A stretch of 52,311 nt of DNA. It comes from Acidobacteriota bacterium (lineage in GTDB: Bacteria > Acidobacteriota > Thermoanaerobaculia > UBA5066 > Gp7-AA6). Location of the stretch: positions 1-52,311 of the forward strand of contig JBKOVK010000317.1 in NCBI GenBank assembly GCA_046724475.1. Reading direction: 5' to 3'. A program made the position numbers and the translations under genes. This document shows, in pieces, positions 12,202-44,944 of this stretch. Within the stretch, counting starts at the first letter, position 1. The number at the start of each line of letters is the position of its first letter. The notes beneath the pieces were generated by a model that saw nothing but the letters and a program-made list of their open reading frames with translations, was not told where the DNA came from and made no database searches.

Positions 12202-12431
12202 AGCGCGCGACCCGCGCGCAAGGGGGAGGGGAAGTCGCAAGGGTTCCCTCTCCCAGGATTCGACGGTGATACGGCAGACCGTACGACTGGAGCCCCCGGG
12301 CGCCTCGACGGCCCGGAAATGAGAGGGGAGGTCTCGTAGGGACCCTCTCCCTAGACAAGAACGGTGCTTTGGAAGGCAGCGGGAGTCGGAATTGTGGCTC
12401 CAAGCAGGCTGTTACCGGAGACCGCGGTTTT

Positions 12432-12440
12432 TGCTACACT
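12432..12440 (+). promoter_or_regulatory. Putative extended -10 (TGcTACACT) for skp
   Basis: TGnTAnnnT motif about 50 nt upstream of ATG 12492; SD AAGGAG at 12481-12486. Confidence 0.5.
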
Positions 12441-12460
12441 TCCGCGCTTTCGAAAAGACG

Positions 12461-12484
12461 GAAGAAGGGAAGAAGGGAAGAAGG
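12461..12484 (+). repeat. Perfect 8-bp tandem repeat (GAAGAAGG)x3
   Basis: Read directly; the last unit merges into the skp Shine-Dalgarno. Confidence 0.85.
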
Positions 12485-12491
12485 AGTGGGA

Positions 12492-13139
12492 ATGAAACGC
12501 ATTGCTCTCTTCGCGGCGGCGGCCCTTGGGGCTGCTACCGCCCAGGCTCAGGGAACGACGGCCCCGCCTCCCGCTACGGCGGCCCCGGCTCCGGGCGTGC
12601 AGAAGATCGGCGTCATCAACGTCGAGCGTCTGGTGCAGGAGTCGGCGCTGGGCAAGGAGGCGTTCAACCGGGTCAAGCGGCTGAATGATCAGAAGAAGGA
12701 AGAGGCCGACAAGCTCTCCAAGGAGCTCCGCGACATGGAGCAGAAGCTGGCCGACCAGGGATCGTCGCTTGCCGATGACAAGCGCGAGTCCCTCCAGAAG
12801 ACGTACCAGGAGAAGGCGATCGCTTTCAAGCGCTTCCAGGACGATGCCAACCGCGACCTCGAGACCGCTCAGAAGAAGGAGCTCGCGGACTTAGAGAAGC
12901 GCGTCTTCCCGGTGATCAACCAGGTCGGCAAGGAGAAGGGCTTCACGATCATCCTCAACAAGTTCCAGTCCGGACTGGTCTACGCCGACGACTCGGTCGA
13001 CGTCACGGACGAAGTCCTGAAGGTGTTCAACACCACCGTGGCGGTTCCGAAGCCGGCCGCCGCAGCAGCGCCCGGCGGTTCGACGCCCGGTTCCGCGGCC
13101 TCCAAGGCCCCCGCTCCCGCTCCCACCAAGAAGCCGTAG
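12492..13139 (+). CDS. skp: Periplasmic chaperone Skp/OmpH
   Basis: Signal peptide [25 protein letters not shown], coiled coil, LVYA...D.T..VL. Start moved from 12369 to the SD-preceded ATG. Confidence 0.92.
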
Positions 13140-13170
13140 CGTTCGCGGAAGCCGGGAGTCGACGATCGCC

Positions 13171-14259
13171 GTGGCCCGCGCGAAGCGTTCCACCCGCGCT
13201 CCGAGCCGGCCGCGCCGCGGGGCCCGTTCGGAACGCGGCGGCTTCACGCTTGCGGAGGTCTCGCGCCTCGTCGGCGGCCGCGTCGCTGGCAACCCGGCAA
13301 CGCGCCTGACGGGGATTGCCCCGCTCGATTCGGCAGGTCCGGGCGACCTTTCGTGGGTCGTGGACGATCGGAGGGCCGCCGAGGCCGCGAAGAGCCGCGC
13401 CGGAGCCCTCCTGGTCGATCGAGAAGCACTGGCCTCCGGCCGCCCGTGCGTCGTCGTCGAAGCGCCGCAGGTCGCCCTGGTCCGGCTGCTGGAGGCTCGC
13501 TTTCCGGCAGCGCGGCCGAAGGCCGGTGTCGCCCGCGGAGCGGTCGTTGACCGGTCGGCGCGGCTCGGCGCCGGCGTCTCCGTCGCCCCCGGCGCCACGG
13601 TTGCCGCGGGCGCGCGCGTGGGCGCGCGGACCGTCCTCTCGGCGGGCGCGTACGTCGGCGAAGGCGCAGAGATCGGCGAGGACTGTTTCCTCCATCCCAA
13701 TGCGGCGGTCCTGGCCGGCTGTCGGGTCGGAGCGCGCTGCGTCCTCCACGCGGGCGCGGTTGTCGGGGCCGACGGGTTCGGGTACGTCTGGGACGGGCAG
13801 GCGCACCGGAAGATCCCCCAGCTCGGCATCGTCCGCGTCGAGGACGACGTCGAGATCGGCGCCAACTCCACCGTGGACCGGGCCACTCTCGGGGAAACCG
13901 TCATCGGCCGGGGGACGAAGATCGACAATCTCGTTCAGGTGGGGCATAACGTCGTCGTGGGCGAGCACGCCATCCTCTGCGGGCAGGTCGGGATCGGCGG
14001 CTCCTCGACCCTGGGACGGGGCGTCACGCTCGCCGGGCAGGTCGGAATCTCGGACCACGTGACCATCGGCGACGGCGCGATCCTCACCGGACAGGCCGGC
14101 ATCGCGCGCCAGGCCAAGGTCCCGGCGGGGGCGGTTCTGTCCGGAATGCCGGCGCTTCCGCATCGCGAGTTCCTCAAGCGCGCGGCACTGCTGGGCCGGC
14201 TCGAGGCGGCGCTGGAAAGGCTGACGGCCCTCGAGAAGAAGCTCGCGGGACGGCGTTAG
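13171..14259 (+). CDS. lpxD: UDP-3-O-(3-hydroxyacyl)glucosamine N-acyltransferase
   Basis: Hexapeptide repeats, [36 protein letters not shown]. Confidence 0.96.
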
Positions 14260-14267
14260 GAGGCGGC

Positions 14268-14705
14268 GTGGAACTGGGAATCAACGAGATCCTGAAGACG
14301 CTCCCGCACCGTTATCCGTTCCTGCTCGTCGATCGGATCCTGGAGATCGTGCCGGGCAAGCGGGCGGTGGGCATCAAGAACGTCACGTTCAACGAGGAGT
14401 TCTTCCAGGGACACTTCCCGGGAAACCCGGTGATGCCGGGCGTGCTCGTCCTCGAGTCGATGGCCCAGGTCGCCGGCGTGATGCTTCTCGGCGTCGTTCC
14501 GGACAAGGAGAAGAAGCTCCTGTACCTCTCGGGCGTGGACCGGTGCAAGTTCCGGCGTCCCGTCGTCCCGGGGGACCAGCTGCGCATCGAGGCCGAGGTC
14601 ATGTCGCTGAAGGCCAAGGTCTGCAAGTGCCGCGTGACGGCGACGGTGGACGGTAACCTCTGCACCGAGGCCGAGCTCCTTTCGGTGCTGGTGGATCGCC
14701 CGTGA
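14268..14705 (+). CDS. fabZ: 3-hydroxyacyl-ACP dehydratase
   Basis: LPHRYPFLLVDR, KNVT.NE.FF.GHFP..PVMPGVL..E.MAQ. Confidence 0.97.
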   Translation: MELGINEILKTLPHRYPFLLVDRILEIVPGKRAVGIKNVTFNEEFFQGHFPGNPVMPGVLVLESMAQVAGVMLLGVVPDKEKKLLYLSGVDRCKFRRPVVPGDQLRIEAEVMSLKAKVCKCRVTATVDGNLCTEAELLSVLVDRP

Positions 14706-15487
14706 GCGTCGAGATCCATCCCAGCGCGGTCGTCTCGCATTCGGCGTCGCTGGGCGACGACGTGTCGATCGGACCTTATGCCGTGATCGGCGACGACGTG
14801 GTGCTCGGCGCCCGCACGCGCGTGGGCGCCCACGTCTCGATCCAGGGGCCCGCGATTTTCGGCGAGGAGAACCGGATCTTCACGCATGCGGCGCTGGGCT
14901 GCGATCCCCAGGACCTGAAGTACCGTGGCGAGCGGACGCGGCTCGTCGTCGGCGCGCGCAACACGTTCCGCGAGTTCATGACGGTCCACCGCGGGACGCC
15001 GGGCGGCCACGGCGAGACCGTGATCGGCGACGACAACTACTTCATGAACTTCTCCCACGTGGCGCACGACAACCGAATCGGCTCGAGGGTCGTGCTCGCC
15101 AACGGCGCCGTGCTCGCGGGCCACGTCGAAGTCGGCGACTACGCGATTCTCTCGGCATACTCCGGCGCCCACCAGTTCATTCGCATCGGCCGCCACGCCT
15201 TCGTCGGCGCGTACTCGCCGCTCCGGCGCGACGTGCTGCCGTATTGCCGGACGGACGGCGCCGAGGGTGAGGTCAAGACGTACGGCTTGAATACCGTGGG
15301 TCTCAAGCGCCACGGGTTTTCCGACGAGCGCATCGAGGCGCTGCAGAAGGCCTACCGGCTCCTGGTCAAGTCCAAGCTGAACACCAGCCAGGCCCTCGCG
15401 CGGATCGCCGAGGAGCTTCCGGGGCAGCCCGACGTGGAGGAGCTCGTCGTGTTCATCCAGGGGAGTGAGCGGGGCTTCATCAAGTGA
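14702..15487 (+). CDS. lpxA: Acyl-ACP--UDP-GlcNAc (or GlcNAc3N) acyltransferase
   Basis: Hexapeptide repeats, PQDLKY, HRGT, catalytic HVAHD, LAGHV, HQF, GLN.VGLKR. Confidence 0.96.
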   Translation: MSVEIHPSAVVSHSASLGDDVSIGPYAVIGDDVVLGARTRVGAHVSIQGPAIFGEENRIFTHAALGCDPQDLKYRGERTRLVVGARNTFREFMTVHRGTPGGHGETVIGDDNYFMNFSHVAHDNRIGSRVVLANGAVLAGHVEVGDYAILSAYSGAHQFIRIGRHAFVGAYSPLRRDVLPYCRTDGAEGEVKTYGLNTVGLKRHGFSDERIEALQKAYRLLVKSKLNTSQALARIAEELPGQPDVEELVVFIQGSERGFIK

Positions 15488-28378: not shown

Positions 28379-28466
28379 CGATTTCGACCGTAACATAGGG
28401 GGAAGGGAAGGGTCAAAGGGAATGGAGTCCAAATCCGGCGGGGTTGTCCCGAGTGTGAAGCTATTG

Positions 28467-30275
28467 GTGTATCGAGTTCTCATCGGCGCGGCGCTGGCGT
28501 GTTTCGTCGCGGCGAGCGCTCGGTCGGCGCCGACCGACATCCTGCCGGCCGGGCAGGTGACGCCCGGGATGCGAGGCTACGGTCTCTCCGACCTCGGCGA
28601 CGGAAAGGGCGTGCAGCGTTTCGACGTCGAGATCGTCGGCGTCCTGAAGAGCTACGCGCCGAAGCAGGACTTGATTCTCGCGCGCATCTTAAACGACGAG
28701 GCGCTCGCGAAGACCGGGATCATCGCCGGAATGAGCGGCAGCCCGATCTACGTCGATGACAAGCTGATCGGCGCTCTCGCGTATGGCTGGCCGTTCGCCC
28801 GCGATCCCATCTGCGGGATCACGCCGATCCAGAGCATGCTCGACATCCGCAAGGCGCCGGCGACCCCGCCGGTTCCGATCGGAGGCGCGGCGACTGCGAC
28901 CAAGGCGATGGTGTCGGCCTTCGGGACGGGGAAGTTCGCCGAGCCCTTCACCGCGCTCGTCGACGCGTTTCGCGGAAAGCCCGCAACCGGTAACGGCCCC
29001 GTGCCGCTGCCGCTGCCCGTCTCCTTTTCCGGCGTGACGACGCCGGGTACCGTCTTCGGGAAAGTCGCCGAAGCCGCGGGCTGGCTGGTGGCGCCCAGCG
29101 GCGCCTCCTCGCCCTCGGCCGGCGCGGCCTCGCCGGAGCCCGAAGGACGGCTCGAGCCCGGTTCCGCCGTGGCGGCCGTGCTTCTCAACGGAGACATGGT
29201 CCTGTCGGCGACAGGCACGGTGACCTGGGTCGACGGCAACTCGATCCTGGCCTTCGGCCACCCGTTCCTGTCGATGGGCCCGGTGGACATGCCGATGGCG
29301 AGGGCGGACGTGCTGACGGTGCTGCCATCGTTGTATCGCTCGTTCAAGTTCTCGACTACGGGACCGGCGCTGGGATCGGTCTCCCAGGATCGCTCGTCGG
29401 GCATCCTGGGCAGCTTCGGCAAGCCTCCGACCATGGTTCCGGTGACGATCAAGATGACGTCGGAGGACCTGCCTCCGCAGACGTTCCGCTTCGAGGTCGT
29501 CCACAATTCGATGCTGACGCCGATCCTGCTGGCGATGGCGACGGACAACGTTCTGACGACGCTCGAGAAGCGCGCCGGGGAACGCACGATCGTGTGGAAA
29601 TCCTCGATCGCGACGGACGACAAGCCGGTGCGCTGGGATTCGGTCTTCTCCGGCCTGACGGCGCGCGAGGAGGCCGTGGGCTCGCTCGCCCTGCTGACGA
29701 ATTACCTCATGGCCAACGAATTTCGCGATCTCTCGATTCGCGGCGTGGAGGTGGAGATCACGCACTCCGACCGCCTCCAGAGCGCGCGGATCGTCAATGT
29801 CGAGGCGCAGAAGGAGCGCGTGCGGCCTGGGGACACCGTGCCCGTGTGGGTGGACCTCGAGGACTTCCGCGGCGGCTCGCGGCGGGTCGTGATGACGGCG
29901 AAGATCCCCGAGAACACGCCCCCCGGACCGCTGACGCTCTTCGTCGGCGACGGCAACGCGGCGACGGCGTACGACCTCGCCCTCTATCCGCCCGATCCGC
30001 ACTCGCTCGATCAGGTGCTGGAGTTCCTGTCGCGGGTCCGTCCCCCGAACACCCTGAACCTCCTGGCCTATCGCGCGGCCGCCGGTGCCGTGGTCAACGG
30101 AGCGCCGCTGCCAGCGCTTCCGCCGACGCGGGCGGCGCTGCTGCGTGATCGCGGCCCGGGTGACGGTTCACCGGACCTCGGCTACCTGCGCCTCCAAGCG
30201 GAGTCGATCGAGCAGCCGGTGCCCGTCGCGGGGTCGGCCCGCCTGAATCTCGAAGTGCTCCCGAGGATCTGGTGA
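28467..30275 (+). CDS. Secreted SpoIVB-type (S55) serine peptidase, permuted
   Basis: Signal peptide from GTG 28467; D.....TGIIAGMSGSPIY...LIGA, and later GTVT......AFGH. Confidence 0.85.
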   Translation: MYRVLIGAALACFVAASARSAPTDILPAGQVTPGMRGYGLSDLGDGKGVQRFDVEIVGVLKSYAPKQDLILARILNDEALAKTGIIAGMSGSPIYVDDKLIGALAYGWPFARDPICGITPIQSMLDIRKAPATPPVPIGGAATATKAMVSAFGTGKFAEPFTALVDAFRGKPATGNGPVPLPLPVSFSGVTTPGTVFGKVAEAAGWLVAPSGASSPSAGAASPEPEGRLEPGSAVAAVLLNGDMVLSATGTVTWVDGNSILAFGHPFLSMGPVDMPMARADVLTVLPSLYRSFKFSTTGPALGSVSQDRSSGILGSFGKPPTMVPVTIKMTSEDLPPQTFRFEVVHNSMLTPILLAMATDNVLTTLEKRAGERTIVWKSSIATDDKPVRWDSVFSGLTAREEAVGSLALLTNYLMANEFRDLSIRGVEVEITHSDRLQSARIVNVEAQKERVRPGDTVPVWVDLEDFRGGSRRVVMTAKIPENTPPGPLTLFVGDGNAATAYDLALYPPDPHSLDQVLEFLSRVRPPNTLNLLAYRAAAGAVVNGAPLPALPPTRAALLRDRGPGDGSPDLGYLRLQAESIEQPVPVAGSARLNLEVLPRIW

Positions 30276-32449
30276 ACCGGGTCCGGTCCCGGGTTCTGGC
30301 GGTCGCTCTAGGTGTGTCCGCAGCGGCTGCCCCTTTGACCGCGGCCGCCGTGCGCATCTGGGTCTGCGACAGCGCGGGGGAGTTCTCTCTGGGAGAGGCG
30401 CGCGGCATTTCGGTGACGGCGGACGGAACGCTCCTGCCGGGGCACGCCCTCTCGAAAGTCGAGTCAATCGCGGAGGCTGTGCTCTTCGCCGGCGTTCCGG
30501 GCAAGAAGGGGGAGCTGTACGTCGGCACCGGGGACGCCGGAAAGATCCTGCGCGTCACCGGCGACGGCGCGGTCGAGACCTTTGCCACGCTCCCCGAGCA
30601 GGAAGTGACGGCGCTCGCCGTCTCGCCCGACGGCACGGTCTACGCCGGCGGGTCTCCGGGCGGCAAGGTCTATCGCATCGAGAAGGGAAAGCCCGTCCTC
30701 TATTACGACACGAAGGCCGAGTACGTCTGGGCGCTGACGTTCGCGGGTCCCGTCCTCTACGTCGGTACGGGCCTTCCGGGTGAGATTCATCGCGTCAAGG
30801 CGGCCGGCCAGGGCGAGCGCGTCCACAGCACGGTGGACGCGCACGTCCGCGCGCTCTTCGCGGATCGACAGGGACGCGTCTGGGCGGGAACGTCCGGATC
30901 GGGCCTCGTTCTCCGCATCGATCCGGCCGGGCGTGTCACCACCGTCTACGACTCGGGAAAGCCCGAGGTGACGTCGATCTCGGCGGACTCCTCCGGGCGG
31001 GTGTGGGCGGCGGCCGGAGCGGCGGACCTCTCCTCCTCGGGAGGGGAGCCGATCTCGCTTCCCACGGCGACGACGTCGGCGAAGCCCTCGAAGTCGGGCT
31101 CCCCGACGGACGACGATGACCGGAGCCGGTCCGAGGTCACGGTCTCGGTGTCCTCGCCGCGGCTGGCGACGTCGCGCGGCTCCTCGCGCGGCGGCTATTC
31201 GTCGGAAGTCGTGCTCTTCAACGAAGGCGAGCCTCCGCGGACGGTCTGGAACTCGTCCGAGGAGATCGTCTTCGACCTCGCGCCCGACGCCGACGGATCG
31301 GGAGTCCTCGCCGCGACCGGTCCCCGCGGCAAGCTCTACGCGATCCAGGCCGACGCTTCCTCCCTGGTGCGGACGTTCGACGAGAAGCAGGCCACGTTCC
31401 TGGCCGGCCCCGACGTCGGATTGAACTCGTCGAGCGCTCTCTACCGGCGGCGCGCCGGCGCGACGCCCGGCGAATACGTCTCGCCCGTGAAGGACACGGG
31501 CCGGACCAGCCACTTCGGCGCCTTCCGCTGGGAGGGCGAGGCGCCGGGCAACTCGAGAGTCGAGTTCTCGTTCCGGTCCGGCGAGTCGGCGACGCCGGAC
31601 ACGACCTGGAGTCCGTGGTCGCCCTGGAGCGGATCCGGGCGCACACTGCGAATCGACGCGCCTGACGGCCGCTTCCTGCAGTGGAAGCTGCGCATGGAAC
31701 CCGACGGCGAGCGCACGCCGCGGGTCCGCCGTGTCGAGGCCGCCTACCGCAACCACAATTCGGCCCCGACGGTGGAGAGCCTCTTGGCGTTGGAGCCGGC
31801 CGAAGTCCTGGCGCGATCGGGCACCAGCGGCTCGAACGTGTACGAGGCCGCGGCCACTGATGAGAAGGGCATCTTCACCGGCCTCGAGGAAGCCAAGTCG
31901 GAAAGCTCGCCGCGGAAGCTCTACCGCAAGGGCTACCGGACGCTCCAGTGGAAGGCGAGCGACCCCGACGGCGACGCGCTGGTGTACGAGCTCGAGTTCC
32001 GCCCCGCGGGCTCGACGAAGTGGATCCCGCTCCGCAAGGACATCCACGAGACGTCCTATTCCTTCGACTCGACGTCCCTGCCCGACGGAGAGTACGTCTT
32101 TCGGGTCACGGCGTCGGACGCCGACGCCAATCCCGGCGAGGGCAAGACCGCCTCGCGCGACAGCTCGACCGTGCGGATCGACAACACGCCGCCGGTCGTG
32201 CGGGAGACCTCGCGCTCCGCCGGCATCCTCGAGATCACGGCGGCCGACGCGGCGTCGCCGATCGCCGAGGCCGAATACAGCCTCGACGCGAAAAAGTGGA
32301 TCCGGATCGAGCCCAAGGACGGGCTCTCGGATTCTCCGGAGGAGTCGTACACGATCCGACTGCCGGCCGAGGCCCGCGGCGCGTACCTGCTGGTGCGCGT
32401 GACCGACGCCGCGCGCAACGTTGCGGTCGTCCCGTTCACGGGACCATAG
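30272..32449 (+). CDS. Secreted beta-propeller + FN3/Ig-like domain protein
   Basis: Signal peptide; repeated blades (LYVGTG, VYAGGS, VWAGTS, VLAATG); WS.WS module; FN3-like W.ASDPDGD.L.Y...DG.Y.FRVTASD; IDNTPP. GTGA overlap with the peptidase. Confidence 0.8.
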   Translation: MNRVRSRVLAVALGVSAAAAPLTAAAVRIWVCDSAGEFSLGEARGISVTADGTLLPGHALSKVESIAEAVLFAGVPGKKGELYVGTGDAGKILRVTGDGAVETFATLPEQEVTALAVSPDGTVYAGGSPGGKVYRIEKGKPVLYYDTKAEYVWALTFAGPVLYVGTGLPGEIHRVKAAGQGERVHSTVDAHVRALFADRQGRVWAGTSGSGLVLRIDPAGRVTTVYDSGKPEVTSISADSSGRVWAAAGAADLSSSGGEPISLPTATTSAKPSKSGSPTDDDDRSRSEVTVSVSSPRLATSRGSSRGGYSSEVVLFNEGEPPRTVWNSSEEIVFDLAPDADGSGVLAATGPRGKLYAIQADASSLVRTFDEKQATFLAGPDVGLNSSSALYRRRAGATPGEYVSPVKDTGRTSHFGAFRWEGEAPGNSRVEFSFRSGESATPDTTWSPWSPWSGSGRTLRIDAPDGRFLQWKLRMEPDGERTPRVRRVEAAYRNHNSAPTVESLLALEPAEVLARSGTSGSNVYEAAATDEKGIFTGLEEAKSESSPRKLYRKGYRTLQWKASDPDGDALVYELEFRPAGSTKWIPLRKDIHETSYSFDSTSLPDGEYVFRVTASDADANPGEGKTASRDSSTVRIDNTPPVVRETSRSAGILEITAADAASPIAEAEYSLDAKKWIRIEPKDGLSDSPEESYTIRLPAEARGAYLLVRVTDAARNVAVVPFTGP

Positions 32450-32484
32450 GAGAGGTCCCAGGTCTCAAGTCATAATCTGAGGCG

Positions 32485-34152
32485 ATGAGGCGCGCCGTCG
32501 CTGGTGTTCTGCTCCTGGCGGCGATCGCCTGCCGCGCGCGCCAGGAGTCCCCGGCCCCGACGCAGACGCTGTCCCGTCCGACCCCCCAGGCCATCGAGCC
32601 CGGGCTCGAGTTCCTCGACGGCACGAAGGACGGAGCGCCGGAGGCGGGCGGGACGCTCTACCGGCGGCTCGCGGGCGAGCCGACCACGCTGAACGCCGTC
32701 CTGCAGTCGGGCGTCTTCGAGGCCCAGGTACTCCAGTACATCCAGCGCAATCTCTTCGACTACGACGCGAAGCTGAACCGCGTGCCGGGCCTCGCGGAGA
32801 GCCTGGAAGTCTCCTCGAACGGGCGTGAGTACGTCGTCACGCTCAAAGCCGACGCGGTGTGGGAGGACGGCAAGCCCGTGACCTCGCGGGACGTTCTCTT
32901 CACCGTCGAGAAGATCCGGGACCCGAAGGTCCCCGCGCCCGTCTTCAAGTCTCTCTTCGAAGACCTCGAGAAGGCCGAGGTGCTCGATCCGCGGCGCGTG
33001 CGATTCCGGTTTCGCCAGCCCTATGCGTTTCGGGCGATGGCGTTCGTCTTGCCGGTCCTTCCGGAACATCGTTTCGCGGGCCAGCGCTTTCTCTCCGCCC
33101 GGGACAACCGGGCGCCGCTCTCCGATGGTCCGTACCGGCTGGTGAAGTGGAAGACGCAGGAGTCCCTCGAGCTCGAGCGCAATCCCCGCTATCCCTGGGA
33201 CAAGGGCAACTTCGACCGGATCCTCTTCCGGATCGTCCCGGACAACGCGACCGCGGTTCGGCTCCTGACGTCCGGAGAGCTCGACGAGGATCAGCTCGAC
33301 GCCTCGCAGAAGGCGAAAATCGAGACGATGGGACCGTCGGCGCCGTGCTGCCGGTTAGTCGAGTTCTACAACCTCGACTTCAACTACATTGCCCTGAACA
33401 ACCGGTCGCCTCTCTTTTCCGACGCGCGGGTACGCCGCGCGATGACGATGCTGCTCGACCGGGCTTCGCTCGTTCGAGACCTCTACCGCGGCTCCGCGCG
33501 GATCATCTCGGGCCCGTGGGCTCCGGATTCCCCGGCCTACGACGCGTCGGTGGAACCTCTGCCCTTCAACCCGGAGCAGGCCAAGAAGCTCCTGGCCGAG
33601 GCGGGGTGGGGCGACACCAACGGCAACGGGACGCTCGATCGCGACGGCCATGAATTCGAGTTCGACCTGGTCGTCTCGGCGGGGTCCGACATCGGCCGCC
33701 AGATCGACGAAATGCTCTCCGCCGAGCTCGCGAAGGTCGGCGTGACCGCGCGTGTGCGGCAGATGGAGTGGAGCGCGTTCGTCGCGAAGGTCGACGCGGG
33801 AGAATTCGACGCGGCGTCTCTGGGCTGGTCCAGCGTGGACGCGAATCCCGACCCGTACTTCTACTGGCACTCCTCACAGTGCCCCCCCAACGGGCAGAAC
33901 AACGGCTGCTACCGCAGCGCCGAGGCGGACCGGCTGATGGAGGAGGCGCGGACCACGCTCGACGCCCAGAAGCGCAAGGAAACCTTCCACCGCCTCCACC
34001 GCATCTTCCGCGACGACGCCCCGGCGATCTTCGTGGTCAACCCGACGCAGAAGTACGCCCTTACGAAATCCGTCCGCGGCGTGACGACGTCGCCGCTCGG
34101 GCTCTACGGGATCTGGCCGGGACCGCTGGGCTGGTGGAAGAAAGCCTCGTGA
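32485..34152 (+). CDS. Peptide/nickel ABC transporter substrate-binding lipoprotein (family 5)
   Basis: Lipobox AAIAC, P.LAES, W.DG.P.T..DV.FT, GPY.L..W, FSD.RVRRA, A..LL.EAGW. Confidence 0.92.
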   Translation: MRRAVAGVLLLAAIACRARQESPAPTQTLSRPTPQAIEPGLEFLDGTKDGAPEAGGTLYRRLAGEPTTLNAVLQSGVFEAQVLQYIQRNLFDYDAKLNRVPGLAESLEVSSNGREYVVTLKADAVWEDGKPVTSRDVLFTVEKIRDPKVPAPVFKSLFEDLEKAEVLDPRRVRFRFRQPYAFRAMAFVLPVLPEHRFAGQRFLSARDNRAPLSDGPYRLVKWKTQESLELERNPRYPWDKGNFDRILFRIVPDNATAVRLLTSGELDEDQLDASQKAKIETMGPSAPCCRLVEFYNLDFNYIALNNRSPLFSDARVRRAMTMLLDRASLVRDLYRGSARIISGPWAPDSPAYDASVEPLPFNPEQAKKLLAEAGWGDTNGNGTLDRDGHEFEFDLVVSAGSDIGRQIDEMLSAELAKVGVTARVRQMEWSAFVAKVDAGEFDAASLGWSSVDANPDPYFYWHSSQCPPNGQNNGCYRSAEADRLMEEARTTLDAQKRKETFHRLHRIFRDDAPAIFVVNPTQKYALTKSVRGVTTSPLGLYGIWPGPLGWWKKAS

Positions 34153-35123
34153 CGGCGTACCTGCTGCGCCGTCTCGCGCTCGCGATCCCGACGCTCTTCG
34201 GAATCACCGTGGTCGTCTTCTTCCTGGTTCACCTGGCCCCGGGAAGCCCGATTTCCGGCGGCGTCGACTCGCTTCGGCGGCCGACCGGTCGCGCGGCCGA
34301 GGAAATGCGGCGCCTGTACGGCCTGGACCGTCCGCTCCCGGAACGCTTCGCCACGTGGATCTCGCGGGCGGCGCGCTTCGATCTCGGGGAATCCTTCGTG
34401 GACCACCGTCCGGTGTCCGAGCGCATCGGGGAGGCGCTGCCCAACACGCTGCTCTTAAACGGGCTCGCGCTCGTGCTCGCCCTCGCCATCGCGATCCCGC
34501 TCGGCGTCGTGGCGGGAGGCCGACCCGAGAGCGCGTTCGACCGGACGTCGGGCGCGGCGCTCTTTGCGCTGTATTCGATGCCGACGTTCTGGGCGGCCCT
34601 TCTCCTGCAGACGCTCTTCTCGGTGCGCCTGCGGCTGCTGCCTCTGTACGGGATGGAGTCCGACGTCGCCGGCTCCGGGTTCGCGGGCGTGGCGGACCGC
34701 CTCGCGCACCTGGCGCTTCCGGTCACGTGCCTCACCTACGGGACCCTGGCCTTCGTCGCTCGGCTCGTGCGCTCGGGAGTGGCGGAGGCGGCTTCCAGCG
34801 ACTTCGTGCTCGCGGCGCGGGCCCGCGGGGCGTCGCGCCGCCGGGCGCTCTGGACACACGCGCTGCCCAACGCGCTGCTTCCAGTCTTGACCCTCCTGGG
34901 GCTGGTTCTGCCGGCGCTCCTGTCCGGCAGCGTCATCGTCGAGAAGATCTTCGCCTGGCCAGGTCTTGGAAGGCTCTACTTCGATTCGATCCTCGCGCGC
35001 GACTATCCGATGATCCTCGGGCTGTCGCTGCTGACGGCCGTGGCGACTCTCGCGGCGACGCTTCTCGCCGATCTGGCGACCGCTGCCGCGGATCCCCGCG
35101 TGCGCGACGGCGCGACTCCATGA
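34149..35123 (+). CDS. Peptide ABC transporter permease (OppB/DppB-like)
   Basis: YLLRRL..IPTL.GI..VVF.L..LAPG.P, DLG.S, HL.LP, EAA-like loop, E.IF.WPGLG, RDYP. Start GTG 34149. Confidence 0.92.
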   Translation: MTAYLLRRLALAIPTLFGITVVVFFLVHLAPGSPISGGVDSLRRPTGRAAEEMRRLYGLDRPLPERFATWISRAARFDLGESFVDHRPVSERIGEALPNTLLLNGLALVLALAIAIPLGVVAGGRPESAFDRTSGAALFALYSMPTFWAALLLQTLFSVRLRLLPLYGMESDVAGSGFAGVADRLAHLALPVTCLTYGTLAFVARLVRSGVAEAASSDFVLAARARGASRRRALWTHALPNALLPVLTLLGLVLPALLSGSVIVEKIFAWPGLGRLYFDSILARDYPMILGLSLLTAVATLAATLLADLATAAADPRVRDGATP

Positions 35124-35947
35124 GCCGGCCCGTGCGACGGCGACTGCCCGGCAGCGCGCGCGTGGCGCTGGCAGTCGTCGTGGCGCTCTGGCTGGTCGCC
35201 GCGATCTCTCCCGTTTTTTCGGGCGCGGCGAGGGAGATCCGGCTCGATCGGCGGCTCGCGCCTCCCTCGGCGGCGCACCCGTTCGGCACGGACGATCTCG
35301 GACGCGACCTGCTGGCGCGCGTCGTGGCGGCAACGCCGATCTCGCTCGCGATCGGCCTGACGGCGGCGGCCGTGTCCCTGGTCGTGGGATTCGCCGTCGG
35401 CGCGACCGCGGGCTACGCCGGTGGGCTCACGGACCTGGCCCTCTCCCGGCTGATCGAAGTCATGCTGTGCTTCCCGGTTCTGTTTCTCCTCCTCGCCTTG
35501 GCGGCTCTGCTGCCGCCTTCGCCTCTGACCGTGATCCTGGCGATCGGCCTGACGACATGGGCGGGCGACGCGAGGTACGCGCGCGCGGAAGTTCTCAAGA
35601 TCAAGGACCTCGACTATGCGCGCGCGGCCCGCGCCGCAGGCGCCTCGACTCCGCGGATCCTGGTCCGCCACCTGCTGCCCAACGCCCTGTCTCCGCTGAT
35701 CGTGTCGGCGGCGTTCGGCGTCGGGTGGGCGATCCTGGCCGAGGCCTCGCTGTCGTTTCTGGGCGTGGGACTCCCGGCGCCGGCGGTCTCGTGGGGAGGA
35801 ATTCTCTCGGCGGCCCCGGCGTACATCGAAGAGGCCTGGTGGCTCGCGCTCTTCCCGGGCTTGGCCCTGTTCTTGACGGTCGCCGCCTATAATCTGCTGG
35901 CCGAAGGCCTCCGCGTCGCGACAACCGAGGGGGGGAGGAAAGCATGA
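35120..35947 (+). CDS. Peptide ABC transporter permease (OppC/DppC-like)
   Basis: HPFGTD.LGRD, ISL.IG, AAR..GAS..RI..RHLLPN, E.SLSFLG.G, WW..LFPG. Start ATG 35120. Confidence 0.92.
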   Translation: MSRPVRRRLPGSARVALAVVVALWLVAAISPVFSGAAREIRLDRRLAPPSAAHPFGTDDLGRDLLARVVAATPISLAIGLTAAAVSLVVGFAVGATAGYAGGLTDLALSRLIEVMLCFPVLFLLLALAALLPPSPLTVILAIGLTTWAGDARYARAEVLKIKDLDYARAARAAGASTPRILVRHLLPNALSPLIVSAAFGVGWAILAEASLSFLGVGLPAPAVSWGGILSAAPAYIEEAWWLALFPGLALFLTVAAYNLLAEGLRVATTEGGRKA

Positions 35948-36423
35948 CGGAGCGAATCGCCGTCTATCCCGGCTCCTTCGATCCGTTGACCAACGGGCAT
36001 CTGGACATCCTGGCGCGGGCGCGGCGTCTGGCCGACCGGGTGATCGTCGCGATCCTCGAGCAGGACCAGAAGACGCCGCTCTTCTCGATGGAGGAGCGGA
36101 TCGGAATGATCCGGGAGATCGTGGGAGGAGATCCGTCCATCTCGGTCGCGTCGTTCACGGGCCTGCTGGTGGACTTCGCGAACCGGTCCGGAGCAGGTTT
36201 GATCGTGCGAGGACTGCGTGCCGTCTCGGATTACGAGTACGAGCTCCAGATGGCGCTGATGAACCGGCGCCTGGCTCCCTCCATCGAAACCGTGTTCCTG
36301 ATGGCCAAGGAGGAGTACTCCTACGTCTCGAGCCGCCTGGTCAAGGAGCTCGCGCGCCTCGGCGGCGACGTGACGGGTCTGGTTCCCCAGGCGGTCCGGC
36401 AGCGGCTCACCGACCGGTTTTGA
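35944..36423 (+). CDS. coaD: Phosphopantetheine adenylyltransferase
   Basis: YPGSFDP.T.GHLDI, RGLRAVSDYEYE, VSS.LVKE; TATAAT at 35888-35893 upstream. Confidence 0.97.
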   Translation: MTERIAVYPGSFDPLTNGHLDILARARRLADRVIVAILEQDQKTPLFSMEERIGMIREIVGGDPSISVASFTGLLVDFANRSGAGLIVRGLRAVSDYEYELQMALMNRRLAPSIETVFLMAKEEYSYVSSRLVKELARLGGDVTGLVPQAVRQRLTDRF

Positions 36424-36833
36424 CGTTGCGCGCGGTCGAATCTCACCTCCGGGTCCGCTACTCCGAAACGGACCAGATGGGGATCGTCTATCACGCCCAT
36501 TACCTCGTCTGGTTCGAGATCGGACGCACCGACTGGTGCCGCGCCGCGGGCATTCCCTACGCCGAGATGGAGAAGAACGGGCTCTTCATTCCGGTCACGC
36601 GCGTGGAGGCGAGCTTTCGGCGAAAGTCGAGCTACGACGACCCGATCCGCGTGATCACGCGGATGGGAACGCTCTCGTCCCGAGGCTGTGTTTTCGAGTA
36701 CGAGATCCGGGATCCCTCGGACCAACTCCTCGCGGAAGGCTCGACCCACCATGTCTTCATGGACTCCTCGGGGAAGCCTTGCCGGGCCGACCCCAGGGTC
36801 GTCGCGGCACTCCAGAGTTATCGGGAGGAATAG
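36420..36833 (+). CDS. Acyl-CoA thioesterase, YbgC/4HBT family
   Basis: RVRYSETDQMGIVYHA.Y..WFE..R hot-dog motif. Confidence 0.9.
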   Translation: MTLRAVESHLRVRYSETDQMGIVYHAHYLVWFEIGRTDWCRAAGIPYAEMEKNGLFIPVTRVEASFRRKSSYDDPIRVITRMGTLSSRGCVFEYEIRDPSDQLLAEGSTHHVFMDSSGKPCRADPRVVAALQSYREE

Positions 36834-38117: not shown

Positions 38118-38810
38118 ACCGTACCGCGCGATCGTCCAGAGGATCTTCGCGCCTGCGCGAAGCGTCCCGGACACGGTTCCGGTGATCTTCGATACGCCCA
38201 CGCGCCTTCGATAGGACACCGGCACCTCGACGACGCGTAGACCGCGCCGGAGAGCCTTGACCTGCATCTCGCACGTCCAGCCGAAGCTCACGTCCTTCAT
38301 CCGGAGGCCCTGGTAGGCGCTCCAGCGGATGGCGCGAAACGGTCCCAGATCCGTATAGCGATGGCCGTAGAGCAGTCGAATCAGGAGGCAGGCGAGCGCG
38401 TTGCCGAGGCGCGCCTGGGGAAGGAGTGCGCCGGGCTCGCGCCGGCCCAGGACGCGGGATCCGATGGCGAGGTCGGCCCCGGCGGCGAGCGCCTCGAGCA
38501 GCAGGGGCATCTCTTCGGGATGGTCGGAGAAGTCGCCGTCGAGGAACACCAGGATCTCCGGCGGGTCCGACGCGAGGGCCGTGACGCCGGCGAGACAGGC
38601 GCTGCCGTAGCCTCGGCGATCCTCGCGGACCACGCGCACCGGAAGTCCCCGTGCGATCTCGGCGGTGCCGTCGGTCGAGGCGTTGTCGACCACGACGACC
38701 TCATCCGCGGCGCCCGCCGGGATGGACCCGACGACTAAGGGAAGAGACTCGCGCTCGTTGAACACCGGAATGATGACGGCGACGCGGGGGCCCCGCGCGG
38801 CGGCCGTCAT
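38106..38810 (-). CDS. GT2 family glycosyltransferase (DPM-synthase-like)
   Basis: IIPVFNE, VVDNASTDGT, GYG.A, FLDGD, GSR, TDLGPFRA, RR.GVSKI.GT. Confidence 0.9.
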   Translation of the reverse strand: MTAAARGPRVAVIIPVFNERESLPLVVGSIPAGAADEVVVVDNASTDGTAEIARGLPVRVVREDRRGYGSACLAGVTALASDPPEILVFLDGDFSDHPEEMPLLLEALAAGADLAIGSRVLGRREPGALLPQARLGNALACLLIRLLYGHRYTDLGPFRAIRWSAYQGLRMKDVSFGWTCEMQVKALRRGLRVVEVPVSYRRRVGVSKITGTVSGTLRAGAKILWTIARYGLRS

Positions 38811-39715: not shown

Positions 39716-40641
39716 GAAAACGGAAGGGCCGATACGATTGCGACCCGATCCGGCGCCTCCAGGACTCTCAGAGTCGAGCCCTCGGCGACGTCGCGGAACG
39801 CGAAGCCCAAGCCGATCGGTCCGAAGCGCGGGGAAGTCGCGACACTCGTCACGTGCGCCAGCTCGTGTCCCTCCTTGGCGGGATTGAGGAAAGCGGTCCC
39901 GGCCGGCACGGTCTCGCCGGGAAAGCGAAATCCGACTAGCCGGCGCTGGAGGCGCCCGTACGTCCGCAGTCGCGCCACGATTTCCTGGCCGACGTAGCAG
40001 CCCTTGGTCGTCGAGACGGCGGCCTCCAGGCGAACTTCATCGGGGATGTTCGCGTCGCCGGCGTCCACCCCGAACCGCGGACGGCCCGCCTCGATGCGGA
40101 GAACCTCGGCCGTCTCAGGCGGGATCGCAACCGAACCCAAGTCCGACAGGATGCGCTCGAGGGCTCGTCGCGCGGAAGCGGGGGCGAGGATTTCCCCCGC
40201 GATCTCTCCTTCTCCGGGCAGCTTCACCGCGCCGTCGGGCGGCGCGACCGCCCCGGCTGCCGGGCCGTAAAGCGCCGCCCGCGCGTAGTCGTCGGTGGCA
40301 TCCCGTACCGAGGCGTTCTGGAACGCGGCGTACCTGGCCAGATGCGCGGCCGCCGCGGGGACGGCCTCGCTCGGAACGAGCAGGAGGATGCGCTCGGGTT
40401 CGCCGACCAGGCGACCGAAGTAGAGGAGCTTTCCTCTCGGCGTCAGTCCCGCCGCGGGGCGGGCCTCGCCGGGTGTAAGCCCCCGGACCTCCTGCGTCAC
40501 CTGGCCCTGCAGGAACGCGACACGCTCGGCCCCCTCGACTGCGATCACTCCGGAGCGGAACCGGTGCGCGAGGCCCTCGCGCGCCGCCGCGTAGTCGGGA
40601 GGCGCGCCGGCGCTACTTCTTGTCGTGGATGAACTGGGCAC
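39712..40641 (-). CDS. ygfZ: YgfZ/GcvT-family folate-binding protein
   Basis: G.....FLQGQ.T, RIEAG.P, signature KGCYVGQE.VAR. Start uncertain. Confidence 0.88.
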   Translation of the reverse strand: MPSSSTTRSSAGAPPDYAAAREGLAHRFRSGVIAVEGAERVAFLQGQVTQEVRGLTPGEARPAAGLTPRGKLLYFGRLVGEPERILLLVPSEAVPAAAAHLARYAAFQNASVRDATDDYARAALYGPAAGAVAPPDGAVKLPGEGEIAGEILAPASARRALERILSDLGSVAIPPETAEVLRIEAGRPRFGVDAGDANIPDEVRLEAAVSTTKGCYVGQEIVARLRTYGRLQRRLVGFRFPGETVPAGTAFLNPAKEGHELAHVTSVATSPRFGPIGLGFAFRDVAEGSTLRVLEAPDRVAIVSALPFS

Positions 40642-41065
40642 GCACGCGGACCTTGGGAGAGTCGGCGGCGTCGAGGGTGCGCATCCGGCCGGAGATCCGG
40701 TACGACTCGGTCTCGAACCCGTCGATGGTCACGCTGCGATCGCTCGAGGTGACGACCTTGCCGTCCTTGTCGAGCACCTCGATGGCGAGCTTCATCTTCC
40801 ACTTCTCGGGTCCCTTGTTGTCGGCCTCGAACTGCCACCAGATCCAGGAGTGGTCCTTGGGGTTGTTCGCCCGGGCCTTTTCGATGTCTTCCTCTTCGGG
40901 ATAGTTGCGGGCCTCGAGCGTGCGGATGGTGCACTTGCCGTAGGTGATGCCGACGTCGCCGGCATGCCGGCGCGGAAAGGGAATCGTCTTCTCGAAAACG
41001 CCTTCCTCGGCGAGGAGGCCGGCGGCGGCGAAAAAAGCGGCGGCGACGAGCGCTTTTCGGATCAT
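40613..41065 (-). CDS. Hypothetical secreted protein (150 aa)
   Basis: Signal peptide MIRKALVAAAFFAAAGLLA, beta-rich mature region, host-like codon usage, stop overlaps the ygfZ start region. Confidence 0.72.
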   Translation of the reverse strand: MIRKALVAAAFFAAAGLLAEEGVFEKTIPFPRRHAGDVGITYGKCTIRTLEARNYPEEEDIEKARANNPKDHSWIWWQFEADNKGPEKWKMKLAIEVLDKDGKVVTSSDRSVTIDGFETESYRISGRMRTLDAADSPKVRVRAQFIHDKK

Positions 41066-42863: not shown

Positions 42864-43775
42864 CTAGGGTCTTCGCAGCACGATCCGGTCCGGCGATCCC
42901 GCCGGGCCGGAGATCGTGCTCTGGACCTGAAGGCCGACGAAGTCGGCCGCGCCCGAGAAATCCCAGATGAGATTGCGGAATCCCCGCAGCGAGCTGCCGG
43001 GTTCGGGGTGGATCGCCTTCGACAGCACGTCGGTGCCGCGACCCTGGGCGTAGGCCGGCGAAAGATACAGGTAGGAGAGGAAGCCGCTCGCGTTGATCCC
43101 CGCCTGCACCAGATAGTCCGGCTCCACGGACTCCAGCAGCACGTACGTCGTCTCGTCGGGACTGCGGCGCATGCCCTCCAGCGCGTGCCAGAAGCGCTGG
43201 CGGGAGGGGACCCAGGGCGCAAAGGGGATGAAGTCGAGCGACAGCGCGGCAGACTTCGGGGAGGCCGCCACCGCGGTCACGACGTCGCGCACGCGTCGCT
43301 GCCCGTCGGGCACGGTCATGTAACCGGCGCCGGCTCCGCCGCGGCCCGGATCCGTGAGGATGACTCCCGCGCCGACGATGTTGCCGGAGCGATCCGTCTC
43401 GACGTAGGTCTCGCGCAGGGCCGGCCGGGACGGCGTTCCCGGAATCGTCGTGGTGATCTTCCCGAACCAGCGGCCGGTCAGGTCGAGCGACCAGGGCTCG
43501 GGAGTCGCGGGAGCGAGCCCCGCGGTCTCGGCGATCGGATTACCGTTGCGGGCGCTCCAGACCAGCACTCCCGTGATGACCGCCAGAGCGAGGCCCGCGA
43601 GGACCAGCAGGTAGGGGCGCGGAGGCAGCTTCGACCAGAAGCCCGTGTCTTTGGGAGCCGGAGGAGGAGAGGGTGGCGGGGGAGCCGGAGCGCGGTCCAG
43701 TCGCTTGTGACACTTCAGGCACTGGGCAGCCGGAAGCTGCGTGAAGCCGCAGTGGGGACAGGTGACCCAAGCCAT
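42864..43775 (-). CDS. Hypothetical membrane-anchored protein with N-terminal Zn ribbon
   Basis: MAWVTCPHCG...QCLKC, Pro-rich linker, single TM helix, extracytoplasmic domain. Start ATG 43775. Confidence 0.75.
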   Translation of the reverse strand: MAWVTCPHCGFTQLPAAQCLKCHKRLDRAPAPPPPSPPPAPKDTGFWSKLPPRPYLLVLAGLALAVITGVLVWSARNGNPIAETAGLAPATPEPWSLDLTGRWFGKITTTIPGTPSRPALRETYVETDRSGNIVGAGVILTDPGRGGAGAGYMTVPDGQRRVRDVVTAVAASPKSAALSLDFIPFAPWVPSRQRFWHALEGMRRSPDETTYVLLESVEPDYLVQAGINASGFLSYLYLSPAYAQGRGTDVLSKAIHPEPGSSLRGFRNLIWDFSGAADFVGLQVQSTISGPAGSPDRIVLRRP

Positions 43776-43792
43776 TGTGCAAGATGGTAACT

Positions 43793-43877
43793 CAGTAAGC
43801 AGTAAGCAGTGAGCAGTAAGCACTCAACGTGATCAGCGACACGCTCACCGCGGACCGCTCACTGCTTACCGCTTACG
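43793..43877. repeat. Inverted pair of heptamer tandem arrays
   Basis: (CAGTRAG)x4 at 43793-43820 facing roughly complementary GCTYACY-like units x5 at 43843-43877. Confidence 0.85.
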
Positions 43878-43882
43878 GACGC

Positions 43883-44944
43883 TCAGATTTCGCGGAAGAA
43901 AAACCGGTCGAGCGTCGCCATCCGTGCCGAGAGAGCGGCGCGGTCGGGCTCCATCAGCCAAAGCGCGGCCGCGATCGAAGACGCGAGCGAGTTGCCGTCC
44001 TGCGGCGTGAAGCAGAAGCCGACGATCTCTTTCTCTCCGCGAACCGAGAGTGTGGGAGAGGCGATCACGGCCTGGGACAGGATGCGGCCGTAGTAGCCGT
44101 GGTCGCGCCCGAACGAGAAGATCTGGTTGGCCGAGCGACGTTCAGTCAGGGCGATGCGCCGGTTGGCGCGCAGCTTCGCCATGACCTTCTCCTTCGAGGT
44201 CGGCTTGGCGAGATCCATGTCGAACCACAGCGAGTGCATGTACTGCGTGTTGATTTTCATCGCCGAGGAGAAGATCGGCGGCTTCCAGCCGATCGTCGAC
44301 AGCAGGGCCGAGGCGTCGCGCGCGTGGTGCGTGCCGAACTCGGGATCGTCGTGCTTCCCGACCGACGGCGCCGGCGCGAAGCCCGAATCCTGTGAGACGT
44401 CGTTGGCGCGGCGCATGCACACGAACCGTCCCCGGTCCAGGATCCGCTCGCCCGACTCGTCGGCGCCGAGGGTCTGGATCAGGCAGGCGATGTTGTGGGT
44501 GTTGCAGGAGACGATCTGGAGGAAGCGGTCCTGGCCGGGGACCAGAGCCTCGTCGTTGATCCCCATGGCGTACATCTTGCCGAAGCCGAACTCGCTGCCC
44601 TGAGCCAGAAAACCCTTGGGACCCCGGATCTTCTCGTAGACCTTCTTGTTCTCGTTGCCGGCGGGGGTGCAGTCGATGACGACCGTGGCGCGCTCGAGGG
44701 CGGACTGGGCGTCGTGGCTGACCTTGTGCCCGAGGGCCTCGAAGTCGGCGAGCTTGTCGGGATCGACGGCGAGCCGCGCGCCGCGCTCCATCAGGTGGTT
44801 GACCTTGGCCCGCTCGGTCGTCATGGGTGTGCGCTTGTGGAACGTGACCTCGTCGACGCCCAGCGACTTCCCGAAGTCGGTGAAGAGCCCGATCAGGGGC
44901 TCTCCGATCGTGCCCGTCCCGACGATGTGGACGATCTTGTTCAT
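43883..44944 (-). CDS. Class II (archaeal-type) GAPDH-like dehydrogenase
   Basis: GTGTIG, VIDCTP, QGSE, IVSCNTH, RRAND, THH..D, T..MH, PQDG parallel the archaeal GAPDH motifs GYGTIG, IDCTP, QGGE, VVSCNTT, RRGAD, SHHGPD, TT.MH, HQES. Confidence 0.8.
   Translation of the reverse strand: MNKIVHIVGTGTIGEPLIGLFTDFGKSLGVDEVTFHKRTPMTTERAKVNHLMERGARLAVDPDKLADFEALGHKVSHDAQSALERATVVIDCTPAGNENKKVYEKIRGPKGFLAQGSEFGFGKMYAMGINDEALVPGQDRFLQIVSCNTHNIACLIQTLGADESGERILDRGRFVCMRRANDVSQDSGFAPAPSVGKHDDPEFGTHHARDASALLSTIGWKPPIFSSAMKINTQYMHSLWFDMDLAKPTSKEKVMAKLRANRRIALTERRSANQIFSFGRDHGYYGRILSQAVIASPTLSVRGEKEIVGFCFTPQDGNSLASSIAAALWLMEPDRAALSARMATLDRFFFREI

Follow-up and report, generated by a model that had tools for sequence, protein, structure and literature searches.

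In a 52,311-nt stretch of contig JBKOVK010000317.1 (assembly GCA_046724475.1; hereafter the window) from an Acidobacteriota bacterium (Thermoanaerobaculia; UBA5066; Gp7-AA6), a gene for a putative exported serine peptidase related to SpoIVB (P0001) is followed by one for an exported beta-propeller protein (P0002), and the two form a conserved unit that extends far beyond this genome. Behind the pair lie genes for a family-5 solute-binding protein (SBP; P0003) and two permeases (B and C), a link that is recurrent yet outside the ancestral core. In the explanation we favor, to which we give about an even chance, the pair is a two-protein envelope protease that in this branch is coupled to AppA-like/Opp-type oligopeptide import, so that proteins would be digested and the products imported.

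P0001 homologs were found in 183 of 201 sampled Acidobacteriota genomes and P0002 homologs in 188 (175 and 179, respectively, of the 187 good-quality genomes); the 201-genome tallies, here and for P0003 below, include three unpublished genomes (G024, G049, and G152). P0001 had no match in 18 genomes, of which 13 also had no P0002 match and five had only weak P0002 matches (E 1e-6 to 3e-8). Neighborhoods were read in 60 loci of the phylum, each covering ∼20 kb around a P0001 homolog chosen from the listed matches in published genomes, with relatives among them not independent. The partner lies directly downstream on the same strand in 55 of these loci by tblastn (40% coverage) and in 56 by tracing of open reading frames (ORFs), the exceptions being two families (f36 and f54) in which both genes exist without being adjacent. 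The 49 usable pair junctions comprise 15 overlaps and 20 gaps of 0–30 nt (35/49 together); seven more were left out because the longest-ORF rule overshot the start. When every ORF of the 60 loci was clustered without bias, the peptidase was recovered 60 times, the partner 54 times, and any other family at most nine times, the next commonest neighbors being argS, smc, an extracytoplasmic function (ECF) sigma factor gene, and coaD.

A scan of named records with a 10-row alignment returned 592 relatives among 600 candidate stretches, and in the neighborhoods of the best 80 of these the two genes sit side by side in records from KSB1, Scalindua (two), and WOR-3. Of 121 genomes sampled in the phylum to which the Scalindua genome belongs, 37 have a P0001 homolog, and in a representative library 2129 clusters match P0001 at E ≤ 1e-30. 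Longer proteins matching at E ≤ 1e-20 number 116 (1081–3085 aa, most 1240–1560), with source labels that include Armatimonadota, Vulcanimicrobiota, and Abditibacteriales; ∼80 of them, counted by eye, carry propeller families beside PF05580. P0416 (1429 aa) is a fusion in gene order, its residues 21–633 aligning with P0001 (E 1e-65) and residues 743–1415 with P0002 (E 9e-63). Matching presence and absence, adjacency in 56 of 60 loci, adjacency in other phyla, and natural fusions thus identify the pair as a unit, bearing out the co-occurrence across genomes on which the earlier note had staked its proposal of a SpoIVB-like protease with a propeller partner.

Several acidobacteria (G117, G174, G129, G194, and G038; loci L162–L172) carry two old paralogous pairs per genome, with partner distances of 2.3–2.8 within one genome against 0.47–1.2 between same-type copies of different genomes. 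Six records labeled ‘uncultured Eubacteriales’ (Bacillota; L091, L100, L109, L116, L126, and L128) have peptidases that nest among Aminicenantes, and their labels look wrong.

The Pfam family Peptidase_S55 (PF05580) matches P0001 at 41.6 bits (cut-off 25), the sole such match in the genome, and aligns residues 60–130 with profile positions 130–199 of 210; Pfam and NCBIfam recognize the protein over these residues only, which correspond to the final third of the S55 profile. The SpoIVB equivalog TIGR02860 scores 41.4 bits and does not reach its cut-off of 305.25. A profile built from 65 diverse homologs, 28–47% identical to P0001, matches a single PDB entry, SpoIVB 9lnf (E 2.5e-11), again over the Ser-barrel stretch only, and Ser105 of P0001 aligns with SpoIVB position 378, the catalytic Ser that is Ala in the S378A crystal 9lnf. 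In the AlphaFold (AF2) model of P0001 (predicted local distance difference test score, pLDDT, 90.8; predicted template modeling score, pTM, 0.88), all 50 listed VIA-align rows place residues 36–150 on a C-terminal Ser-bearing barrel (DegP, DegQ, DegS, Deg2, 3C-like), with a few extra aligned residues extending up to residue 325 in about a third of them. The best match has Z 7.7 over 106 residues (root-mean-square deviation 3.6), and Z values here are middling by the tool’s own note; the Ser-barrel assignment is nonetheless secure because of the sequence match to SpoIVB. Foldseek with the whole model gave no match at E ≤ 0.001.

Across the alignment of 65 homologs, the GMSGSP motif (including Ser105 and Ser107), His280, Ser307, and Asp323 are invariant and Asp258 is nearly so; His280 is the only invariant His. 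Conservation is similar in the two regions, with columns conserved at ≥ 90% making up 20 of 115 in residues 246–360 and 20 of 98 in the Ser barrel. The predicted N-terminal helix (residues 12–33) is read from the model as a signal peptide, and the Ser barrel begins at residue 38, directly behind it, so that no barrel can precede it. Since the Ser barrel comes first in the chain and His280 and Asp323 are invariant in a later, equally conserved domain, we infer that residues 246–360 supply the His/Asp half of the active site and that P0001 would be a protease of clan PA whose two halves have swapped places. It is likely an active protease, given the invariance of Ser105, Ser107, His280, and Asp323, the correspondence of Ser105 to SpoIVB Ser378, and the match to HtrA-type Ser barrels. 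Residues 454–614 form an Ig/macroglobulin-like sandwich (VIA-align Z 5–6). The earlier description of an S55/SpoIVB-like protease holds for the Ser half; it missed that this half alone is recognizable and that it stands first in the chain. Its further implication that a PDZ domain is missing agrees with the Pfam search, which found none in P0001 or P0002 at E ≤ 0.01.

Reg_prop matches P0002 at 40.3 bits (cut-off 20.4), and the AF2 model (pLDDT 86.3) consists of a propeller (residues 28–400), a sandwich domain (400–515), a disordered linker, and two further Ig/FN3-like domains. Residues 254–306 (window positions 31031–31189; pLDDT < 50) interrupt the propeller as a disordered insert of low conservation, rich in Ser, Thr, Pro, and Asp, that might serve as a flexible loop or be a site of cleavage. 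The invariant residues lie at 416–499 and 564–712, and none falls in the propeller. The nearest structures found by Foldseek belong to the ectodomains of hybrid two-component sensors from Bacteroides (E 6e-12, template modeling (TM) score ∼0.3); Pfam finds no kinase or receiver domain in P0002, whose chain ends after the Ig-like domains. An Atlas search with residues 400–725 returned unnamed clusters only.

P0003 matches SBP_bac_5 and both permeases match BPD_transp_1 (Table 1). The closest solved relative of P0003 is the oligopeptide binder AppA (1xoc, E 7e-65), and a loose lipobox (...AIAC, read by eye) makes it a putative lipoprotein; because it reaches no NCBIfam equivalog cut-off, peptides, nickel, and opine-like compounds are all candidate ligands. 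The SBP, permease B, and permease C genes follow the pair in eight of the 60 phylum loci. A wider set comprised 136 loci in which the peptidase is full-length: the importer is linked in 24 and unlinked in 98, and 14 loci are too short to label (24/122 labeled). P0003 matches at E ≤ 1e-40 occur in 86 of 201 genomes, and, this genome aside, the SBP adjoins the pair in 17 (two of them, G024 and G152, unpublished), which together with this genome’s own family represent nine GTDB families; seven importer-linked clusters were re-read and confirmed. Four genomes with two pairs each (G117, G174, G129, and G194) have the importer after one pair only.

In a peptidase tree (IQ-TREE, 86 peptidases), an 11-row clade is entirely importer-linked (support 100/99), a Thermoanaerobaculia group (also 100/99) is linked in 14 of 21 rows, and importer-free second copies fall elsewhere than linked ones. 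Within the same class, four families (f3, f6, f7, and f9) have the pair followed by coaD, with no transporter. From these supported clades, the separate position of the second copies, and the transporter-less loci within the class, we conclude that the linkage is old and paralog-specific, with losses; a single origin is neither shown nor rejected by the trees. In the partner tree, all ten sampled partners of the 11-row clade and the Thermoanaerobaculia partners fall into one 35-row group with weak support (25/96). Occurring in 24 of 122 loci, on two branches, and in at least nine GTDB families, the importer link is thus neither unique to this genome nor part of the ancestral core. The earlier association of the pair with a peptide importer therefore stands in part, as a recurrent feature, although most lineages have the pair without it.

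The genome has three ATPase matches of the Opp type (oligo_HPY), all on contigs other than that of the pair (C147, C235, and C330), and one of the three is next to a second permease B paralog. The ATPases that power the importer would be encoded elsewhere in the genome.

Under the digest-and-import explanation, P0001 would belong to the SpoIVB (S55) lineage of clan PA and work as an exported serine endopeptidase, with its Ser barrel first and its His/Asp domain later. P0002, translated from an overlapping start codon, would act with P0001 as one unit, most likely as the substrate-recognition or scaffolding subunit. As the earlier note proposed, the propeller might gate or present substrates in the role of a PDZ domain. 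Together they may cut periplasmic, envelope, or incoming proteins into oligopeptides, which P0003 would capture and the two Opp-type permeases would import, using ATPases from elsewhere in the genome. Catalysis, binding between the two proteins, the substrate, and the hand-over of peptides are the steps we infer. The near-universal distribution fits a role in envelope protein turnover, and the importer-linked paralog fits salvage of, or feeding on, peptides. A bolder version, which we put forward only tentatively, sees here an undescribed two-subunit envelope protease with a swapped-barrel chymotrypsin fold that would depend on its propeller/Ig partner, belongs to the core of Acidobacteriota, and extends to several other diderm phyla, with an old paralog lineage supplying an Opp-type importer that is dedicated to it and lacks ATPase genes of its own.

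Several results weigh against digestion coupled to import. The proposed His domain found no relatives: Pfam gave no match for residues 241–346 or other pieces of P0001, phmmer of residues 241–310 against the PDB returned only 9ect_A at E 0.39, and hhalign of the family alignment against the genome’s own DegP-like protein reached E 0.11–0.17 only. The importer is missing beside the pair in 98 of 122 labeled loci, its two linked branches join weakly (61/23), forcing them into one clade costs 21 log-likelihood units (approximately unbiased (AU) test p 0.115), and the partner tree mirrors the peptidase tree only loosely. In one genome (G107) the SBP–permease genes lie on another contig than the pair, and neither this cluster nor six related ones have a transporter ATPase gene behind permease C. 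A role in envelope maintenance suits the pair’s near-universal, single-copy occurrence and its housekeeping neighbors no less well than feeding does, and no RNA run was among the sequencing runs found to carry the locus.

Much of this is what one would expect if the pair were an envelope housekeeping or quality-control protease and the importer genes unrelated neighbors retained in some lineages: nearly all of the phylum carries the pair, mostly as a single copy, it sits among varied housekeeping genes (argS, smc, and coaD), the importer is usually absent beside it, an SBP ortholog is unlinked in G107, and the cluster carries no ATPase gene. Chance retention accounts poorly, however, for a five-gene order kept across at least nine GTDB families, for an importer that follows only one paralog in two-pair genomes, and for genes joined here by 4-nt overlaps or a 35-nt gap, and we regard this alternative as possible but on balance doubtful. 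A different role would be that of a SpoIVB-like signaling protease: it would make one controlled cut in a regulator located in the membrane or the periplasm, and the propeller protein would be the sensor of the cue. The homology of the Ser barrel to SpoIVB, the resemblance of the partner to Bacteroides hybrid two-component sensor ectodomains, and an ECF sigma factor gene nearby in eight of 60 loci speak for it. Yet no gene for a membrane regulator, anti-sigma factor, or site-2 protease is conserved with the pair in those 60 loci, P0002 has no Pfam kinase or receiver match, a PDZ domain is missing, and 41.4 bits is far below the 305-bit SpoIVB equivalog cut-off, which makes signaling improbable.

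P0001 might also be no protease at all, and instead a binding or structural envelope protein that retains a protease-like half-domain. One barrel alone is recognizable, and repurposed trypsin-like proteins exist, such as MamO, which is also among the VIA-align rows for P0001. Against this, none of 65 sequences of ∼30% identity departs from GMSGSP, His280, or Asp323, and the second domain is conserved as much as the Ser barrel; loss of catalysis therefore seems very unlikely.

Among known proteins, Bacillus subtilis SpoIVB (MEROPS S55, PF05580, 9lnf) is the clearest relative of P0001, with a homologous Ser barrel (E 2.5e-11; Z 6.6) and an aligned catalytic Ser, and both are exported. A report on its structure and residues (PMC12502668) gives SpoIVB an N-terminal PDZ domain and the order His236...Ser378. 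P0001, in contrast, has no PDZ domain, carries its Ser barrel right behind the signal peptide, and has its invariant His280 175 residues downstream of the Ser, whereas the catalytic His of SpoIVB is N-terminal to it; ∼270 extra C-terminal residues, a propeller partner, the absence of a sporulation context, and a score of 41 bits against a 305-bit cut-off further separate the two. The periplasmic HtrA proteases (DegP, DegQ, and DegS; S1C) provide the best structural matches to residues 38–150 (Z up to 7.7), but only through their C-terminal barrel, and P0001 lacks their PDZ domains.

The Bacteroides hybrid sensors (4a2m, 3ott) resemble P0002 in having a Reg_prop propeller followed by Ig-like domains; P0002 differs in its one propeller, the lack of a Pfam kinase or receiver match, and a TM score of only ∼0.3. 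App/Opp/Dpp importers share the AppA-like family-5 binding protein and two Opp/Nik-type permeases, whereas the cluster here is without ATPase genes and has coaD after permease C. Prc-NlpI, CtpA-LbcA, tricorn, and prolyl oligopeptidase are serine proteases with a separate adaptor or a propeller gate. Their catalytic folds are S41 and S9, and their adaptors are TPR lipoproteins or a propeller in the same chain; they share with the pair the idea of a non-catalytic partner or propeller that chooses substrates for an envelope serine protease, and no homology to them showed up in the searches made here.

The genes lie in a dense plus-strand string from 28.4 to 36.8 kb (P0001, P0002, P0003, permeases B and C, a coaD-like gene, a 4HBT thioesterase, and an epimerase), in a window with 62–71% G+C in 2-kb steps (Table 1). 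The GTG start of P0002 (30272) overlaps the TGA stop of P0001 as GTGA, and the ATG of P0003 (32485) lies 35 nt past the P0002 stop. Further overlaps join P0003 to permease B (GTGA, 34149–34152), permease B to permease C (ATGA, 35120–35123), permease C to coaD (ATGA, 35944–35947), and coaD to the thioesterase (TTGA, 36420–36423). When ORFs and junctions were re-read, the gene set was as first described, an exported pair with a GTGA overlap, a 35-nt gap, an SBP, and two permeases, divergent from tolQ. The five-gene content of the span originally given (28467..35947) also stands; its left end does not, as P0001 most likely begins at the ATG at 28422 and 28467 is 15 codons inside the ORF. The 617-aa form that results fits the lengths of its homologs (578–637 aa for the 120 among the matches listed), which cover 94–100% of it. 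The locus is carried by 20 DNA sequencing runs, with soil or rhizosphere as their sources.

Table 1. Positions in the window of the peptidase–propeller pair, its parts, and the plus-strand genes that follow
Feature	Position	Strand	Basis
P0001, putative exported S55/SpoIVB-related serine peptidase, 617 aa	28422..30275	+	PF05580 41.6 bits, partial; AF2
Ser-bearing beta-barrel of P0001, aa 38–135, GMSGSP motif	28533..28826	+	VIA-align; profile against 9lnf; invariant columns
Ser105 codon of P0001	28734–28736	+	alignment with SpoIVB Ser378
Second conserved beta domain of P0001, aa 246–360 (His280, Asp323, Ser307, Asp258)	29157..29501	+	column conservation
His280 codon of P0001	29259–29261	+	invariant column
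P0002, exported beta-propeller plus three beta-sandwich domains, 725 aa	30272..32449	+	Reg_prop 40.3 bits; AF2; Foldseek
P0003, family-5 solute-binding protein	32485..34152	+	SBP_bac_5 277 bits; 1xoc AppA E 7e-65
Permease B, Opp/Dpp/Nik-type, GTG start	34149..35123	+	BPD_transp_1 132 bits
Permease C, Opp/Dpp/Nik-type, ATG start	35120..35947	+	BPD_transp_1 85.6 bits
coaD-like cytidylyltransferase and 4HBT thioesterase	35944..36833	+	Pfam; 4-nt overlaps

On the minus strand beside P0001 lie tolQ, tolR, a TonB_C-type tolA, tolB, pal, and cpoB. The likely tolQ ATG is at 28396, and only 25 nt separate it from the ATG of P0001, which places both divergent promoters inside the opposite genes. The divergent tol-pal arrangement occurs beside the pair in one of the 60 phylum loci (G154) and in G095, both from the taxonomic order of this genome, and divergent tol-pal genes also stand beside it in seven of the 80 named loci, all at least 65% identical. 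On these neighborhood counts, tol-pal is rejected as a component of the system, and the association proposed in the earlier note is not supported; the adjacency looks incidental, a local, lineage-specific accident confined to close relatives. Across the 60 phylum loci and the named loci, coaD is found behind the pair or the permeases in members of the class alone, at times on the opposite strand, and coaD and the 4HBT thioesterase are probably passengers outside the conserved module.

The window also holds a classical bamA-skp-lpxD-fabZ-lpxA cluster for outer-membrane biogenesis (9616–15487), which marks the organism as a lipopolysaccharide (LPS) diderm, and no sporulation family matched among the 42 window ORFs scanned, both as the earlier note had read them. 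A YbgC-type thioesterase usually heads tol-pal clusters; here the 4HBT thioesterase stands in the operon divergent from tol-pal, attached through the ATGA (permease C/coaD) and TTGA (coaD/thioesterase) junctions. ORFs at 2220–3734, 42864–43823, 43883–44944, 40613–41065, and 38361–38738 have coding-like codon bias and no Pfam match at the thresholds used.

MEROPS S55 peptidases have been described, in PMC8841776, as widely detected in acidobacteria. Our literature search on S55/SpoIVB in acidobacteria, in non-sporulators, and in Planctomycetes/anammox/Aminicenantes, which did not cover supplements, found no functional study of this protease family or of the pair, in agreement with the initial impression that no function had been characterized for it. 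A search on circularly permuted trypsin-like serine proteases likewise found no description of a permuted trypsin fold of this kind. In PMC5900883, ‘S55’ is a strain name and not the peptidase family. New in this analysis are a paralog lineage tied to the importer, the lack of ATPase genes in the cluster, and the rejection of a tol-pal association.

In soil, Acidobacteriota rank among the most abundant bacteria, and to our knowledge little is known of how they turn over their envelope proteins. Since roughly 90% of the phylum’s sampled genomes have the pair and it turns up again in Planctomycetota, KSB1, WOR-3, and Armatimonadota, it is probably important. A swapped order, if true, would mean that one of the best-known enzyme folds has been rearranged in an unusual way, with its Ser half ahead of its His half. 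The importer linked to the pair offers a testable handle on function, as the ligands of P0003 should be products of the protease.

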